From contig CALMKR010000111.1 of NCBI GenBank assembly GCA_937867625.1, positions 1 through 37,281 on the forward strand: a DNA stretch of 37,281 nt, read 5' to 3'. The notes under the pieces were generated by a model that worked only from the letters and a program-made list of their open reading frames with translations, made no database searches and was not told the DNA's origin. Source of the stretch: an uncultured bacterium. Its GTDB lineage: Bacteria; Patescibacteriota; Minisyncoccia; Phycocordibacterales; UBA918. Both the position numbers and the translations under genes were made by a program. Shown here one piece after another: positions 2,524-15,663 of this stretch; the first letter of the stretch is position 1; each line of letters starts with the position of its first letter.

Positions 2524-2735
2524 AGGTATTTGCACAGGTTATTGGAGGCGATGCGGTCCAGTACACATTACAAGAGGGGGCTACAATAGCGGACCTTAAG
2601 AAACAGGAGCCTAAGTTTGCTAGCTACCAAGCTTCAATCAATGGCGACTCGGCAGATGACAACGATGAGCTATCAGACTATGCGGTCGTTACATTTTCTG
2701 AGAAAATAAAAGGTGCCGCACCACGTCATAATTAA
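2520..2735 (+). CDS. ThiS/MoaD/ubiquitin-like beta-grasp protein (71 aa) with a C-terminal ...KIKG-AAPRHN tail
   Basis: AAGGAG lies 6 nt upstream. MKVFAQVIGG...YTLQEGATIADLKK...ASINGDSADDNDELSDYAVVTFSEKIKG follows the ThiS/MoaD layout: a short beta start, a helix, an (I/V)NG segment, an acidic loop, a final strand, then Gly. It sits in an operon with E2-like, JAB and E1-like genes. Confidence 0.7.
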   Translation: MKVFAQVIGGDAVQYTLQEGATIADLKKQEPKFASYQASINGDSADDNDELSDYAVVTFSEKIKGAAPRHN

Positions 2736-2803
2736 TTGTTGACACCATTGCAGTGGGGCGCTTGCGGTTGCTTGCGCCTTATGCTTTACGAAAGGATAGA
2801 ACA

Positions 2804-3982
2804 ATGACTGATATGACAACAAGAGTAGAGTTGAATAGAATATATGGGACTCCACCACTGCCAGTTATGCCGTATGAGTATGTACCCATAGTAGTGGGAC
2901 ATGTAGACCATGGCAGTACAGTAGTGCTACCGAAGGAGCCGGTCAGTGCTAACACATACGTGAAGGCACAGCAGACGGCTGCGCTCCTAGGGGTACGACT
3001 AACACCTGAGCGACGCGAGCAGCTCAAGGGAATAGCGACGACGGCAGAGGCGAATAGGTTACTCATGGAGTGGAAGGCTGAGCCTATTACACCACTGGTG
3101 TTGAGCGAACAGGACAAGATGAACCTGTCTAAGATAGGATCACCGACCTCGAGCCATGAGTACAAACAATTGCTCAAGGATATTGAGATGAGGCACGTCA
3201 ACATAAACAAAAACCACACTGCCATCGAGAACTACATAAAAGAAATACAAACTATTGAGACAAGGAAGCAGATACTAGAGAACTTGCCTCGATACGATAT
3301 GGTAGCAGAGGTACAAAAGATACTATCCACTGGATTGTACAAGTTGAACAGCATCAATGAATCGCACATGATCTTTGAGTTAACCAACTTGGTATGTGAA
3401 CACGTAGACAAAGAGCTAGGTATTGATCTAAGAGTACCTCTCGGGGATTTCATAGTGGTAGTGTACTACGATGGTATGCGCGTAGCTGTTGAGCCATGTA
3501 GGCACAACACTAAGGTTAACAATTACGTTCACCCACATGTCAACACATCATACGAAGTATGCTGGGGTAATGCACGAACCATGTACACCAAGACAAGAAC
3601 AACGTTCGATCTCTCTGGTTTGATGACAACACTGTACACGTTACTCAAGACGTACAACCCCGAGTCACCATACGCGAAGCTAAGAGAATTCGATATGAAG
3701 AAGTATCCTGATAAGTACAAGGATGCGATCAAGTACATACCATGCGGTGAGGTAGGTATAGATACGTCAGACATGGATGATAACTATAAGGAAGAACTTG
3801 AAGATGTGGATGGTAACACATGGTTTATCTACGATGGATACCATAAGAAATGTTCCATCACTAACATCACGATAGGTGATGACGTACCTTACATCAAGGT
3901 AGGAGATGAGTATCAAAGGATCAATGCAAACAGGTACTCATGGACACATAGGGATGACATAACAATAGGAGATGACGAATGA
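2804..3982 (+). CDS. UBC/E2-like protein with long N- and C-terminal extensions (392 aa from ATG 2804; the ORF is open from GTG 2753)
   Basis: aaagga RBS lies 7 nt before ATG 2804. The core reads NYVHPHVNTSYEVCWGN (HPH 3530-3538, Cys 3560-3562), then MTTLYTLLKTYNPESPY. This mirrors the eukaryotic E2 HPN...C...LLxxPNPxxP signature. A beta-rich segment precedes the HPH. Confidence 0.7.
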   Translation: MTDMTTRVELNRIYGTPPLPVMPYEYVPIVVGHVDHGSTVVLPKEPVSANTYVKAQQTAALLGVRLTPERREQLKGIATTAEANRLLMEWKAEPITPLVLSEQDKMNLSKIGSPTSSHEYKQLLKDIEMRHVNINKNHTAIENYIKEIQTIETRKQILENLPRYDMVAEVQKILSTGLYKLNSINESHMIFELTNLVCEHVDKELGIDLRVPLGDFIVVVYYDGMRVAVEPCRHNTKVNNYVHPHVNTSYEVCWGNARTMYTKTRTTFDLSGLMTTLYTLLKTYNPESPYAKLREFDMKKYPDKYKDAIKYIPCGEVGIDTSDMDDNYKEELEDVDGNTWFIYDGYHKKCSITNITIGDDVPYIKVGDEYQRINANRYSWTHRDDITIGDDE

Positions 3983-4257
3983 AGGTAGTATTAAGCGAGC
4001 TAGTGCATACCAAGTGTATGTACTGGGTAAACAAATGCGATAAGGAAGTAAGTGGGTTTGGTATCACGAGCATCATAGATATGGATGGTATGAAACAAGT
4101 GTACGTCCACGATGCGTGGTTACTAGAGCAAGAGGTAGGTGCAGCACACACTGACATCGACGCGAAGGCATTGGGTAAACTAATGCAGCAGTCCCTCGTG
4201 CATCCCAAGTATGGTGGTAACAACATAGGAACGTACAAGCTCAACTGGTGGTGGCAT
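3979..4257 (+). CDS. JAB/JAMM (MPN+) metallopeptidase, exon 1
   Basis: ATGA overlap with the E2-like stop. Contains the upstream acidic residue (CDKEVSGFG, Glu at 4045-4047). Ends ...KLNWWWH, immediately followed by an in-frame TAA that I interpret as intron sequence. Confidence 0.8.
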
Positions 4258-5038
4258 TAACTCTTGACATGACATACGAACCACGCTTATGATATTAATA
4301 TGAATGAATACTATTACTATTTAGGATTAATAGCAGCAGATGGATACTTAACTAGGCACGGAGTAGGGTTAGATCTTTGTGAAAAGGATATAATATTTGC
4401 TTGTGCTAAACACTTCAAGTGCCATGAGCCTAAGCAACATGGTAATCTTTGGAGAGTTTTAATTTCTGATAAAGAATTAAGACAAACCATTGTTAACAAA
4501 AGGATAAGAACACCGTATAAGAAAGATATGGTGTGGCCGAGCATACCAAAAAAGTACACTAATCATTTCATTAGAGGATACTTTGATGGAGATGGCAGTG
4601 CTACACTGGAGGACAACGGACGAGGCACGATTAGAACACGAGCCAATATTCGTGGACCTAAGTTGTTTCTAGAAGGGCTACATAAACACATTGGTATCGG
4701 TGGAATAAATCACTCGCATCCAAGATGTAGCACGATAACAATAGGTACTCCATTACTAAAGAAGTTTATTCATATCATATATAAAAATAGTACAATACAT
4801 ATTAAGTATAAGCATGATCGTTTGATGAGTGCCACGAGTCTGGTAACAGGCTCTAGTAAAACCTTCTCTGATTGAGGTGGAAGCCCTAAGGGGTGACACT
4901 GCGCAAGCCCTTGGCAGCGTAAGAGACTAAGTGAGAAGGCCCCACTTATGTGGGTGATGCGATAGTCCGATCTAATATGAAAGTATTAGAGGTACGTAGA
5001 AATACTGTACCCCTCTAGTAATAGAGAGTAACATATTG
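4258..5038 (+). mobile_element. Group I-like self-splicing intron (781 nt) carrying a LAGLIDADG homing endonuclease
   Basis: Joining 4257 to 5039 is in frame (781 = 3n+1 matches the frame shift). It restores H-S-H-VNMNVFW-S-ST-D, the JAMM motif HxHx7Sx2D. The last exon-1 base is T (U) and the last intron base is G (5038), as in group I introns. An internal free-standing ORF has its own start. The 163 nt after the ORF contains several stems, e.g. cccac-ttat-gtggg and agtatt...aatact. Confidence 0.75.
4300..4875 (+). CDS. LAGLIDADG homing endonuclease (double-motif, 191 aa), intron-encoded
   Basis: Two LAGLIDADG motifs: YLGLIAADGYL near the N-terminus and FIRGYFDGDGSA mid-protein. Markedly AT-rich compared with the flanks. 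Confidence 0.9.
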   Translation: MNEYYYYLGLIAADGYLTRHGVGLDLCEKDIIFACAKHFKCHEPKQHGNLWRVLISDKELRQTIVNKRIRTPYKKDMVWPSIPKKYTNHFIRGYFDGDGSATLEDNGRGTIRTRANIRGPKLFLEGLHKHIGIGGINHSHPRCSTITIGTPLLKKFIHIIYKNSTIHIKYKHDRLMSATSLVTGSSKTFSD

Positions 5039-5584
5039 TCACATGTAAACATGAACGTATTCTGGAGTAGCACTGACACTGAGACGATCAAGTCTATAGG
5101 TAAGAATGGCATGTGCGCAGCTACAGTCTTCAACAAGAAGGATGAGATGCGTTCAGCTATATGCTACAAGACAACACACCAACTATGGGGTGACACCACA
5201 CAACTGGTAGATGATGTGCCTACGGTATACGAATACATACCAGACGCACGCATACCAGAGTGGGATGCTGAGTTCGTGGCTTGTGTTAAGGAACGGAAGT
5301 ACGAACCAATAGGTAAGCTACTTGGTAGTAGCGAAGCACACCAGCCGTGGCTTGGTAACTACAAGGATAAGAAGACTAAGTTATCCAAAGAAGAGTATGA
5401 CTGGGGTATCATCGGCTTAGGTGTAGATGTTGAATGTGAATACCTTAAGGTTCCTAGGAAAAGGTATGTTAAGGATATCGTAGAGAACAACACAAGTACC
5501 ATCATGGCATATGACATGAAGCTTCAGGCTGGCATAGATAGTGGCGAGCTGGTGTACCATAACAATATACTAGGAGGTAGATAA
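5039..5584 (+). CDS. JAB/JAMM metallopeptidase, exon 2
   Basis: Begins SHVNMNVFWSSTD, the rest of the JAMM motif (His 5042, Ser 5066, Asp 5075). No plausible RBS or ATG of its own; the track start at 5036 is a TTG. The stop overlaps the E1-like start (TAATG at 5582-5586). Confidence 0.8.
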   Translation, partial: SHVNMNVFWSSTDTETIKSIGKNGMCAATVFNKKDEMRSAICYKTTHQLWGDTTQLVDDVPTVYEYIPDARIPEWDAEFVACVKERKYEPIGKLLGSSEAHQPWLGNYKDKKTKLSKEEYDWGIIGLGVDVECEYLKVPRKRYVKDIVENNTSTIMAYDMKLQAGIDSGELVYHNNILGGR

Positions 5585-6252
5585 TGGAGGCTATATACAA
5601 AGAACACTTAGTAAGACAGTCGGACCTGATACCAGTAGATAAGATAGAAAAGTTGTCAGTGCTAGTGATAGGGTGCGGCGCTATCGGTAGCTTTGCTACG
5701 CTTGCGCTTGCGAAGATGGGGGTCGAGCGGTTCACGGTGTACGACCACGACGCAGTGGACATAGTCAACATGAGCAACCAGTTCTATAGGTTCAGTGACA
5801 TAGGTACGAACAAGGCTATGGCGTTACGCCAGTTGGTGCATGACTTCACGAGGGTTGACATCACAGCACAACCGACGAAGTTCCTACCTGGTATGGTTCA
5901 CACTGCTGATATAGTTATCATGGCAGTGGATAGCATGGAGGTTAGGGCATCCTTATTCCCACATATAAGAGCGAAGTACTTGATAGATACTAGGATGGGT
6001 GCTGAGAAGTACACACAGTACGTAGTAGACATGCGTACTAGGGCTAGCAAGGAAACGTATGAGAAGACACTATACACAGATAGTGAGGCGGTGGCTGAGC
6101 GATGCACTGCTAAGTCTACCATATATACAGCACTGACAGCGGGCAGCATGGTATGTAAAGCGGTCAAGAATATACTTGCCAATGAAGCGCATCCTAAGAC
6201 TATACTTATGGATCTAAACAAATCAACCAACAACGTAATGATGTTTCAGTAG
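5584..6252 (+). CDS. ThiF/MoeB/E1-like adenylyltransferase (222 aa)
   Basis: Rossmann GxGxxG (LVIGCGAIGSFATLALAKMG), then YDHDAVDIVNMSNQFY and AVDSMEVR, matching the ThiF/MoeB nucleotide-binding and adenylation motifs. Cys174 (AERCTAKSTIYTALTAGS) sits where MoeB/ThiF carry their crossover-loop Cys. No C-terminal CxxC pairs or rhodanese domain. Confidence 0.85.
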   Translation: MEAIYKEHLVRQSDLIPVDKIEKLSVLVIGCGAIGSFATLALAKMGVERFTVYDHDAVDIVNMSNQFYRFSDIGTNKAMALRQLVHDFTRVDITAQPTKFLPGMVHTADIVIMAVDSMEVRASLFPHIRAKYLIDTRMGAEKYTQYVVDMRTRASKETYEKTLYTDSEAVAERCTAKSTIYTALTAGSMVCKAVKNILANEAHPKTILMDLNKSTNNVMMFQ

Positions 6253-12622: not shown

Positions 12623-13029
12623 TGAAGCAATGCAGAGCTGACCATTTACATACAGCATTTAAAAGAAATCTTTATTGGGTGGAAAAGGACGGCTCTGTAT
12701 GGTGCGCGGAAAAGAAGTGCGGATTTCATACAAGACCCTCGCATAAAATGAAGACAAAATACAGAACACACAAAGGTGCAGGGTACTATATAATTCAGAT
12801 ATGTGTAAATAATATTAAATTCTATTACCCTGTTCATCAGGTTGTATGGTCGTACTTTCATGGGACTCCAGTGGTTGGGCAAGAAATAAATCATATTGAT
12901 TGTGACAAAACAAACAACCGTATAAGTAATTTAGAAATAACAAGCAGAAAGGGAAATGCAATGCACGCATACATTAACAATCGTATGTTAAAAGAAAGAT
13001 GTAAGGTTACAGGAAGGATATTAAAATGA
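12622..13029 (+). CDS. HNH homing endonuclease (135 aa), free-standing
   Basis: EINHIDCDKTNNRISNLEITSRKGN is a classic HNH_3-type H-N-N/H core. The gene is AT-rich compared with its neighbours. It has a TAATG overlap upstream and an ATGA overlap downstream. Confidence 0.85.
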   Translation: MKQCRADHLHTAFKRNLYWVEKDGSVWCAEKKCGFHTRPSHKMKTKYRTHKGAGYYIIQICVNNIKFYYPVHQVVWSYFHGTPVVGQEINHIDCDKTNNRISNLEITSRKGNAMHAYINNRMLKERCKVTGRILK

Positions 13030-13781
13030 TTCTACTTTTAGATATCGAATCGACGGGCCTAAAGCCTGGGGTTGATCGTGTCGTTGAGTTAGGCATGATG
13101 GTAACATCTGAGGACTACACAGTTGTGCATAACAAGTATAGCAAATTGATTTGGGACGACACATATCCAGAGATGCTACCTGAAGTGACGGCAGTGAATG
13201 GCATCACTACTGATATGCTAAAGGGTAACAGCATACCACCATGGGTGGCTTGCGCTGACATCGAAGCGTTGATGTATTCATACGGAGTACGGTACATTAT
13301 TGCTTACAACGCACAGTTTGATAAAGAGTTCATTAGCAGAGAGATGCAGGTAGTTGGTAAGACTAAGTACCAGGACTACAAATGGTTATGTGCTATGGCA
13401 GATGTGAAGGCTAACATGAAGTGTTCTTCATGGAAGCTTATGCACGTAGCTCTTGATCATGGTGTGACTGTCAATCCAAAGGAACTACATAGAGCTATTA
13501 ACGATGTGGAGTTAATGAGGCAGATGCTTGTAGCAGCCGACGCTAGACCAACGGAGATGTACGCATATCAGCAATCACCTAACGTATACGTGCAAGCCCA
13601 TGTAAAGAAACCATGGGATGATGATGGTCTTAGTACACAGCAGGCTAAGAAACTAGGCTTCTCTTGGGAGAAGGCTCGTGGTGATAGCAGGATATTTCAA
13701 AAGACTTGGGTAAAAAGAATAAAAGAATGTGACCTATTAGAACAACAAGCCACGTTCCCATTTATAACAACAATCCTATAG
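13026..13781 (+). CDS. DnaQ/epsilon-like DEDDh 3'-5' exonuclease (251 aa)
   Basis: ExoI LLLDIESTGL, ExoII IAYNAQFDKEF, ExoIII HRAINDVE (Hx4D). Confidence 0.85.
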   Translation: MILLLDIESTGLKPGVDRVVELGMMVTSEDYTVVHNKYSKLIWDDTYPEMLPEVTAVNGITTDMLKGNSIPPWVACADIEALMYSYGVRYIIAYNAQFDKEFISREMQVVGKTKYQDYKWLCAMADVKANMKCSSWKLMHVALDHGVTVNPKELHRAINDVELMRQMLVAADARPTEMYAYQQSPNVYVQAHVKKPWDDDGLSTQQAKKLGFSWEKARGDSRIFQKTWVKRIKECDLLEQQATFPFITTIL

Positions 13782-13789
13782 GAGGATAT

Positions 13790-13960
13790 ATGATTAAAGA
13801 AACTACGATTAGAAAACCGATCAAGAAGCCAGTGAACTCACAGGTAACTTTTGCTACAGAGACTAACAAGAAGATCACTGTGGTATCTAAGAAGCTAGGA
13901 GTTACTCGCAGTAAACTGATTAACTCTATCGTGACAACAGCACTAGCTAAACGGAAGTAA
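13790..13960 (+). CDS. Small ribbon-helix-helix-like DNA-binding protein (56 aa)
   Basis: AGGAGG RBS (taggaggatat). QVTFATETNKKITVVSKKLGVTRSKLINSIVTTAL fits the beta-strand / helix / helix pattern of Arc/CopG proteins. Below the ORF-track cut-off. Confidence 0.5.
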   Translation: MIKETTIRKPIKKPVNSQVTFATETNKKITVVSKKLGVTRSKLINSIVTTALAKRK

Positions 13961-13977
13961 CAACCTGGAGGTAGGCT

Positions 13978-15663
13978 ATGTTTATTTCCATCGACACAGA
14001 AAGCACGGGCCTAGAGGAGAGTGACAGACCGTTCTGTGCAACTATCTCTGGGCAAGGGTTCGATGTGTACACTGAGAATCCAGAGGAGGCACGAAGCTTA
14101 GTTCATAGTGCCAATGGTTTGTATCTTCAGAATACTAAGTTCGACGCACGTATGTTATCCCACTGGGGTATCGACGTGTTCAAGAGACCAACGTATGACT
14201 GCGCGTTCATGTCTAGGATACTACGCAATGATCACTTGCAGTATAGCCTATCAGCTCAAGCTAAACGGCAGGGTATGGAGAAGTCCACTGCCGTTGATGC
14301 AGCTCTCAAAGCGGGTAACCACTACGAGCAGCGAAGGGATTACTTCGGTAGACCATATAAGGTTCCACGTTACGACCAAGTGGATAGGAATATTCTTAGG
14401 CAGTACGCGATCCTTGATTCAAAGATAACGTACAATCTTGGCACATACTATCATACAGTTGCAGATGCAAACGATCGTGTGGTAATGGATATGGAATCTC
14501 GGCTTACTCCAGTGTGCTACGCTATGGAGCGAAGAGGTGTGATGCTTAATAGAGAGTACACGCTTCGTGGTATGTACCATGAGAAGGCACTGCTAGATGG
14601 GTACAAGAAACAGTGGAAGGATAGAACAGGTGCTGACTTTGTTAACTCAGCTAAGTCTGTGAGTAAACACATTGCAGCATCCTTACCTCTAACAGATGAT
14701 AGTAACCCATCCCTAACTGACGATGTTATAGAAGAACTTCTACCAACTGTGTCTGAAGGTGACAAGGAACGGCTGCTCCTAGTGCGTAACATTAGAACAT
14801 ACGATAAGCGTATCAGTACATACTATGAGTCATACCTAAATAAGGCAGGGCTAGTGGATGACGTTGTACATCCCACTATGTGGCAAGCAGGTACACGTAC
14901 AGGGCGCTTTAGCTATAGTGATCCGAATCTTCAGAATATACCAAAGGAAGAGGATAGTGTTGAACCATTCGTTATCAGAGGGTGCTTCAGACCTAGACTT
15001 GGTTACTCTTTCATATCATTTGACTATAGTCAGATGGAGTACCGTATGCTCGCTGATTACGCAGGTGAGATGGACGTTATCAATGCAGTGGTAGCAGGGA
15101 AGGACTTCCACCAAGTCACAGCAGACATGTTTGGTGTAACGAGGAAGATGGCAAAGACTATCAACTTCGCTATTCTATACGGAGCAGGTGATGCAAAGCT
15201 TGCGTTGATGCTAGGTATCAGCGTACAGGAAGCACGACGCTTGAAGGATAAGTACTTTATGGCACTGCCAAAGGTTGAACGTTTGGTGAATGACATCATA
15301 TCAGTTGGCAGGGGTCGTGGCTTCGTGAACAATTGGATAGGTAGAAAGCTATACGCTGATAAAGAACACTGCTACGCTCTTCCTAATCACTTGATTCAAG
15401 GTGGAGGGGCTGACGTTGTGAAGCTTGCAATGATTCAGATAGCGGATTATCTTAAAGGAAAAGATGTTCACATGGTACTACAGATTCACGATCAGTTAAT
15501 ATTTGAGTATCCCAATGGCATGGATATGACCTACGCCAGGGGTATTAAAGAAATAATGGAGAACGAATACATTAGTAAGTCAGGTAAGATGAAGCTTACT
15601 GTGGACTGCTCTGTATCAGGAAATTCAATAGCAGAACGAGACATGAGAAAGGTTGCTCTATGA
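13978..15663 (+). CDS. Family A DNA polymerase with N-terminal 3'-5' exonuclease domain (561 aa)
   Basis: Exo motifs are ISIDTESTGL, NTKFDARML and YAILDSKITY. Polymerase motif A is FDYSQMEYRMLA, motif B is RKMAKTINFAILYGAG, and motif C is LQIHDQLIFE. Confidence 0.95.
   Translation: MFISIDTESTGLEESDRPFCATISGQGFDVYTENPEEARSLVHSANGLYLQNTKFDARMLSHWGIDVFKRPTYDCAFMSRILRNDHLQYSLSAQAKRQGMEKSTAVDAALKAGNHYEQRRDYFGRPYKVPRYDQVDRNILRQYAILDSKITYNLGTYYHTVADANDRVVMDMESRLTPVCYAMERRGVMLNREYTLRGMYHEKALLDGYKKQWKDRTGADFVNSAKSVSKHIAASLPLTDDSNPSLTDDVIEELLPTVSEGDKERLLLVRNIRTYDKRISTYYESYLNKAGLVDDVVHPTMWQAGTRTGRFSYSDPNLQNIPKEEDSVEPFVIRGCFRPRLGYSFISFDYSQMEYRMLADYAGEMDVINAVVAGKDFHQVTADMFGVTRKMAKTINFAILYGAGDAKLALMLGISVQEARRLKDKYFMALPKVERLVNDIISVGRGRGFVNNWIGRKLYADKEHCYALPNHLIQGGGADVVKLAMIQIADYLKGKDVHMVLQIHDQLIFEYPNGMDMTYARGIKEIMENEYISKSGKMKLTVDCSVSGNSIAERDMRKVAL

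Follow-up and report, generated by a model that had tools for sequence, protein, structure and literature searches.

The stretch of DNA analyzed here, called the window throughout, is 37,281 nt long and looks, from its genes for primase-helicase, DNA polymerase A, portal and terminase, like a complete podovirus genome of ~37 kb. Its capsid protein is ~50% identical to those of HTVC010P-type Pelagibacter phages. Positions 2526-6252 of this HTVC010P-like podovirus hold a gene block in the order Ubl candidate, E2-like protein, JAB/JAMM peptidase and E1 (Table 1). The Ubl candidate (69 aa, 2526-2735, ...KIKGAAPRHN) gave zero matches when family libraries were searched, and the JAB and E2-like proteins were unrecognized by PADLOC, PHROGs and NCBIfam. 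Zero matches were likewise obtained when the JAB protein, with its two parts joined, was searched by tblastn against 50,697 GenBank phage records, and when the interrupted locus was searched by blastn against GenBank phages. Hundreds of homologues make up the JAB family, many of them from metagenomic contigs of ~37-40 kb.

The JAB gene is interrupted. Its first open reading frame (3979-4260) ends in ...LNWWWH followed by TAA, and the second frame, SHVNMNVFWSSTD, opens at 5039 and runs to 5584. Joining base 4257 to base 5039 gave a 274-aa protein in which the JAMM motif H-S-H-x7-S-x2-D is restored. An earlier reading of the letters alone (the sequence-only reading) had described this interruption, with a stop at 4258-4260 after ...NWWWH and an in-frame resumption at 5039, and all of its coordinates held. 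The conserved WWWHSHV protein is obtained from two junctions only, 4257/5039 and 4258/5040. U stands at 4257 and G at 5038, and only the first of the two junctions gives the insert a terminal G, in keeping with the claim that the group I splice-site rules single it out. The predicted ligated-exon junction reads ...GGTGGCAT/TCACATGT (here and below, a slash marks the junction or insertion point).

Table 1. Coordinates of features in the window and in two related JAB loci.
Feature	Position	Strand	Remarks
E2-like protein, upstream neighbor of JAB	2753-3982	+	HPH-x7-C segment versus HPN...Cys active site of Ubc2/Rad6; weak match
JAB/JAMM peptidase exon 1 (M1-H93)	3979-4257	+	Ends CAU, first His of H-x-H
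Group I intron (predicted), 781 nt	4258-5038	+	In-frame UAA 4258-4260 at start; terminal G 5038
P1	4251-4257 (GUGGCAU, last 7 nt of exon 1) with 4829-4835 (GUGCCAC)	+	U4257-G4829 wobble
Sigma-70-like promoter motif	4264-4293	+	TTGACA-18 nt-TATGAT, 11/12 matches; consensus scan
Double-motif LAGLIDADG homing endonuclease ORF, 191 aa	4300-4875	+	ATG start; in P1 loop
Internal guide sequence and P10 strand	4826-4835	+	4829-4835 for P1, 4826-4828 for P10
P2 hairpin	4836-4853	+	7 bp, GUAA tetraloop; two bp changed compensatorily in relatives
P3	4862-4868 with 4933-4939	+	Encloses P4, P5, P6 and P7 5' strand
P4	4876-4879 with 4897-4900	+	
P5	4883-4886 with 4891-4894	+	
P6	4901-4904 with 4917-4920, plus 4907-4908 with 4914-4915	+	
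P7	G4923-C4968, bulged A4924, 4925-4929 (GACUA) with 4963-4967 (UAGUC)	+	Pseudoknot with P3; encloses P8 and J8/7
P8	4941-4945 with 4950-4954	+	Bulge relative to family
P9	4972-4978 with 4983-4989	+	GAAA tetraloop
P9.1	4991-4995 with 5007-5011	+	
P9.2	5013-5017 with 5022-5026	+	GUAA tetraloop
P10	5039-5041 (UCA) with 4826-4828 (UGA)	+	3 bp in window, 4 bp in relatives
JAB/JAMM peptidase exon 2 (S94-R274 and stop)	5039-5584	+	Starts S-H-V-N-M-N-V-F-W-S-S-T-D
ThiF/E1-like adenylyltransferase, downstream neighbor of JAB	5584-6252	+	
L080 JAB intron, ~1.07 kb	L080:2903-3973	-	Rfam group I, 84.3 bits, E 1e-21
L085 JAB intron locus	L085:2650-3775		Rfam sees nothing

Searches with the joined 274-aa protein returned 225 homologues. 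At least 20 full-length, intron-less ones were aligned gap-free across the junction (consensus LxWWWHSHVxMxVFWSGTD), a comparison that the sequence-only reading had proposed as a check and that confirmed both the junction and the recreated motif. Matches at exactly 66% query coverage were considered as further split genes and rejected; they are full-length and uninterrupted, with WWHSHV. The protein database held neither a spliced cDNA nor a near-identical intron-less allele, the best full-length homologue being 50% identical. The JAB family profile matched solved Rpn11-type JAMM proteases (E 1e-6), with WWHSHVnmnvFWSgtD opposite WYHSHPGLDVFLSPTD. An AlphaFold2 model of the spliced protein reached a pLDDT of ~85-92 over residues 1-158, and the best Foldseek matches of its MPN domain were BRCC36, Rpn11, CSN5 and Pyrococcus JAMM1. 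The JAMM zinc site of the MPN fold (E...H-x-H-x7-S-x2-D) is present only with the exons joined, as H93/S94-H95...S103..D106. The window protein alone scored below the Pfam Prok-JAB cut-off (12.4 vs 25); its homologues carry PF14464. Alignment, profile and model thus support the view that the split host gene is one JAMM/MPN peptidase gene.

Two arrangements other than an intron were considered at this point. Exon 1 and exon 2 could be a naturally split JAB, translated apart (exon 2 from the TTG at 5036) and assembling afterwards, with a free-standing endonuclease gene between them. That TTG does lie directly before SHV, and gene-calling programs treat the halves as two genes; the break nevertheless falls at residue 93/94, between two zinc ligands and inside one beta-strand of a single MPN domain (residues 1 to ~160) that spans the junction, ~220 homologues are single polypeptides, and a complete, covarying group I core (described below) has its 5' and 3' ends exactly at the break. 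We regard a split gene as very improbable. LAGLIDADG domains are often found in inteins, and an intein was rejected outright: the insert of 781 nt is 3n+1, so exon 2 lies in another frame and an intein is impossible; stops stand in the exon-1 frame at 4258 and 4270, and zero Hint-domain motifs were present.

The insert was folded by hand as a group I intron. Rfam model RF00028, applied to the isolated segment 4815-5050, aligned 4832-4989 as P2-P9 with 24.5 bits (E 1.6e-4), below its gathering cut-off of 50 bits, and Rfam scans of the whole window or of the 1.1-kb region, at the gathering cut-off and permissively, gave zero group I matches. The hand fold agrees with the Rfam alignment and completes P1-P10. 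Both an Rfam scan and a manual fold had been proposed with the sequence-only reading; a complete P1-P10 could be folded, and the Rfam score stayed under threshold, which reflects a limit of the RF00028 model rather than a structural failure. Rfam at its cut-off also detected 0 of 12 tested sibling loci, which fits the published under-representation of phage variants in RF00028 (PMC11878797).

Several local features agree with this fold. The pair G4925-C4967, next to bulged A4924, occupies the expected guanosine-binding position and is invariant in 87 distinct copies of the core, and the 3' end of the intron carries a motif, GUAACA-N-G/, that is conserved family-wide. P1 pairing is kept in all copies of the window's intron (same-site relatives); its exon strand is fixed by the Trp-Trp-His codons, so covariation cannot support P1. 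In a construct with the ORF deleted, P1 and all nested helices were present in the minimum-energy fold (z = -3.8). Other placements of the guide sequence were rejected. Within the 42-nt 5' flank, no G precedes a U, as pairing with A4256 would need. GUGYYR-type candidates inside the ORF (~4419 and ~4599) were discarded for standing apart from P2; ORF-less siblings have the 3' strand of P1 immediately before P2 and a P1 loop of ~40 nt. P7 (ending at 4929), P3' (4933-4939) and P8 (from 4940) are consecutive, with no P7.1/P7.2 helices, so that the core is not of subgroup IA2, to which more than half of the group I introns of viruses belong (PMC11835236).

The core motif AGAGACTAAGTG...GATGCGATAGTCC was found in 73 IMG/VR contigs with highly varied downstream exons. 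From a structure-blind MAFFT alignment of 30 family cores, RNAalifold recovered P3, P4, P6, P8, P9 and P9.1 independently, with compensatory changes in 27 of 32 pairs. When the hand structure was imposed on the family alignments, 89-92% of cells were paired, vs ~40% with partners slid by 1-3 columns; double-change cells in the 30-core MAFFT alignment numbered 215, vs at most 67 in slid controls, and none of 500 shuffles reached the observed pairing score. A covariance model built from the 30-core alignment found 127 copies in 84 fetched loci. Among 104 distinct copies, compensatory change was seen in 37 of 40 pairs and the P7 pseudoknot covaried at 4 of its 6 pairs; this larger alignment was fitted to the model and thus leans towards the structure, and the MAFFT result is without such bias. 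In the window, the model found exactly one copy, at 179.6 bits (mid-range for the family), the next best score being 11.8. Covariation of this extent supports membership of the intron core in a large viral family of compact ribozymes (~210 nt). Support for the claim that the insert is a group I intron comes from the sub-threshold RF00028 alignment, RNAalifold, pair covariation that exceeds shuffled and slid controls, P1 and P10, the intron's final G and the guanosine-binding pair.

Many viral contigs were seen to carry 3-5 ORF-less copies of the ribozyme inside 2-3 kb (L044:1496-3266, L016:1230-3326, L010, L030, L041, L048 and others). The exons between the copies in L044 resemble a phage major capsid-type protein, judged by eye only. 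Elsewhere in the window, 196 nt (13782-13977) lie between a 251-aa ORF (13026-13781) and that of DNA polymerase A (13978-15663), and in this gap the family model gave only noise (8.6 bits).

The reading of 4300-4875 as a LAGLIDADG ORF with its own start was borne out by family searches, a PDB sequence search and the predicted fold. Its product matched Pfam LAGLIDADG_3 (24.1; cut-off 22.5) and PHROG 4645 "endonuclease" (3e-19), and the PDB search returned the solved enzyme I-Tsp061I. The two motifs, LGLIAADG (D14-G15) and RGYFDGDG (D98-G99), have aspartates, D14 and D98, that are invariant in 40 homologues. An AlphaFold2 model (pLDDT 92, pTM 0.88) has a duplicated alpha-beta-beta-alpha-beta-beta-alpha topology; its top Foldseek matches were I-Tsp061I, I-AniI and I-OnuI, and the matches listed were of LAGLIDADG fold, nearly all of them homing endonucleases. 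Together these results support a double-motif LAGLIDADG homing endonuclease. GC content is 0.36-0.39 in the ORF region vs 0.42-0.48 in the flanks.

The ORF leaves flanks of 42 nt (5') and 163 nt (3') within the intron. Both had been described as non-coding, with stems in the 3' flank; the lengths and the stems stand, but the ORF overlaps the core, its last 47 nt running through P1', P2 and P3; 4829-4868, from the guide sequence through P2 to the end of the P3 5' strand, is ORF sequence too. The ribozyme is thus not confined to the 3' flank. The endonuclease stop (4873-4875) lies inside the conserved J3/4 sequence CUGAUUGA (4869-4875), which offers UGA in two frames; between the window and its relatives there is a 1-nt indel, and a different UGA is used. 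The window's P1 loop, which holds the ORF, is 571 nt long (4258-4828), vs the 40-nt scale of ORF-less siblings. With an ORF in a loop of that type, reading into the core, the element gives the impression of a compact intron whose P1 loop has taken up an endonuclease gene.

Upstream of the endonuclease ATG, a consensus scan picked out the promoter motif listed in Table 1. Its TTGACA is invariant in three aligned relatives, a constant 6 nt separates its -10 element from the ATG, and a Shine-Dalgarno sequence is absent before that ATG; the fixed spacing and the absent Shine-Dalgarno sequence suggest a leaderless endonuclease mRNA. The scan found no more promoter sites in the region than expected by chance, which weakens the idea of an internal promoter, so that expression of the endonuclease from 4264-4293, possibly as a leaderless mRNA, is put forward only weakly. 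A 21-nt stretch in the same part of the intron, TTGACATGACATACGAACCAC (within 4264-4299), is near-invariant in all copies, beyond the requirements of a -35 box. The ACCAC in it complements GUGGU of exon 1 (~4249-4253) and could pair there in competition with P1.

The same intron, 779-781 nt long, was found at the identical site in five related contigs, four from Logan and one from IMG/VR. Among the best 80 viral JAB loci, 79 were uninterrupted through residue 94. Intact target sites, TGGTGGTGGCAT/TCNCAYGT, exist (L078 and L079), and the intron-less target of the window's element is predicted to be AACTGGTGGTGGCAT/TCACATGTAAACATG, with insertion between CAT and TCA in the codons for the H-S-H zinc ligands. 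That the intron occurs sporadically, and at a single fixed site, fits homing, as the sequence-only reading had proposed from the position of the insert within the most conserved codons.

The intron could have homed in and since decayed, with an inactive ribozyme, the JAB gene a pseudogene and the Ubl/E2/E1 module left without a peptidase. P10 of the window is down to 3 bp from the 4 bp of its relatives, and P8 is bulged relative to the family. Every core helix is nonetheless intact and the bit score of the copy is mid-range; both exons are open in the five intron-bearing contigs and 62-95% identical (amino acid) to those of the window; the differences among copies are compensatory, with such changes in P2, P3 and P9.1 among the same-site introns; and the endonuclease ORF is unbroken and retains its catalytic residues. 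A splicing-dead copy is accordingly improbable. We conclude, from sequence comparison and structural models, that 4258-5038 is very probably a mobile group I intron, with a LAGLIDADG gene in its P1 loop, that homed into the zinc-ligand codons of a phage JAB/JAMM gene.

In the proposed mechanism, P1 (GUGGCAU with GUGCCAC, wobble at 4257) would present the 5' splice site in the pre-mRNA, and an external guanosine, bound at the P7 pair G4925-C4967, would attack it. Exon 2 would next be positioned by P10 and the terminal G5038, and its ligation to exon 1 would yield a message for the uninterrupted 274-aa peptidase. Ribosomes that reach the intron would be halted at its edge by the UAA at 4258. Expression of the endonuclease would probably start from a separate promoter at 4264-4293, possibly with a leaderless mRNA; the enzyme would cut intron-less JAB alleles, and repair would copy the intron into them. 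JAB peptidase activity may on this mechanism depend on splicing.

Beyond the clade of the endonuclease itself, its nearest relatives in a set of 5.8 billion proteins were 28-35% identical, and those that were looked up (7/7) interrupt other JAB genes that neighbor ThiF/E1 genes. These sibling JAB introns are inserted after the second His (HSH/), 6 nt or two codons downstream of the window's site. In L080, L082 and L084, the JAB gene next to ThiF is broken at ...DIHSH/ and resumes CNFGAFFSSVD. The ribozyme of this type is different from the window's family and has a P7.1/P7.2-like insertion, and the endonuclease gene (L080:3001-3795) is antisense to it. L085, L167, L168 and L169 represent a third JAB lineage, broken at ...ETHSH/ (L085 and L168 resume HTMGAFWSGTD). 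Their ribozyme belongs to the window's family (33-144 bits), and their LAGLIDADG ORF is on the sense strand, near the 3' end and after P9.1 (in the P9.2 loop in L085), not in P1. L169 is a Bacillus cereus group genome (GCA_027710125.1). L168 also carries a second copy of the family ribozyme (L168:4322-4580, 86.5 bits) and another LAGLIDADG ORF of 312 aa (L168:4624-5562); the second copy lies just downstream of the interrupted JAB, at the expected E1 position, and the E1 gene may be interrupted too.

By this comparison, three endonuclease-ribozyme combinations appear to be aimed at one catalytic motif, the JAMM H-S-H. It is a tentative proposal, somewhat short of an even chance, that one LAGLIDADG lineage specialized on the JAMM H-S-H DNA of Ubl-system peptidases and was joined to ribozymes on three or more separate occasions (the P1 loop of the window's compact ribozyme being one location, a 3' loop in that ribozyme family the second, and an unrelated, IA-like ribozyme, with the gene antisense, the third), with splicing possibly gating the timing of deconjugation or Ubl processing. 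A literature search for an intron in a JAB/JAMM gene found no report.

Phage group I introns with homing endonuclease genes have been reviewed (PMC3984707, PMC11878797). The window's intron resembles those of T4 td, nrdB and nrdD, SPO1/Bastillevirinae DNA polymerase and 0305phi8-36 in sitting within a block of conserved codons in a protein-coding phage gene, and shares with known phage introns the in-frame stop at the intron 5' end, the internal endonuclease ORF and the sporadic distribution. It differs in its host gene, which encodes a JAB/JAMM peptidase and not a protein of DNA metabolism or virion structure, and, from most phage introns, in its LAGLIDADG endonuclease; such enzymes are rare in phage introns (PMC3984707), with one case in PMC11878797. 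Also unlike known phage introns, the window's core was missed by Rfam at cut-off.

The Physarum PpLSU3 intron, which encodes I-PpoI, likewise carries its ORF in the loop of P1, with the entire catalytic core downstream. PpLSU3 interrupts nuclear rDNA, and its enzyme is of the His-Cys box type; the window's intron, unlike it, lies in a phage protein gene and has a LAGLIDADG enzyme whose ORF runs into P1'/P2/P3. The sibling JAB introns share with the window the endonuclease lineage, the JAMM H-S-H target and the E2-JAB-E1 neighborhood. Models of collaborative homing and composite-intron origin (PMC3984707, section 12) predict, from repeated capture of endonucleases by ORF-less introns, one lineage and one site with different scaffolds and loops. 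A free-standing endonuclease beside an ORF-less JAB intron, as in collaborative homing, was not found among these loci, and the order of events is inferred.

The type of element is textbook; worth recording are its host gene, the recurrent targeting of JAMM, an ORF in the P1 loop that overlaps the core, and a family invisible to Rfam. The list of genes known to harbor phage group I introns gains a peptidase of a ubiquitin-like system, and homing into the codons of the JAMM zinc site appears to recur, in phages and in one or more genomes of the Bacillus cereus group. The compact phage ribozymes of this large family escape the standard Rfam model, so that automated annotation reports the interrupted genes as fragments. 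For studies of phage Ubl/E2/JAB/E1 modules, the peptidase described here needs in-silico splicing before expression or modeling. The three endonuclease-ribozyme combinations at one target are material for studies of how mobile introns are assembled, and, if the proposed specialization of one endonuclease lineage is true, they would form a natural series on how endonuclease genes and introns assemble and switch scaffolds.
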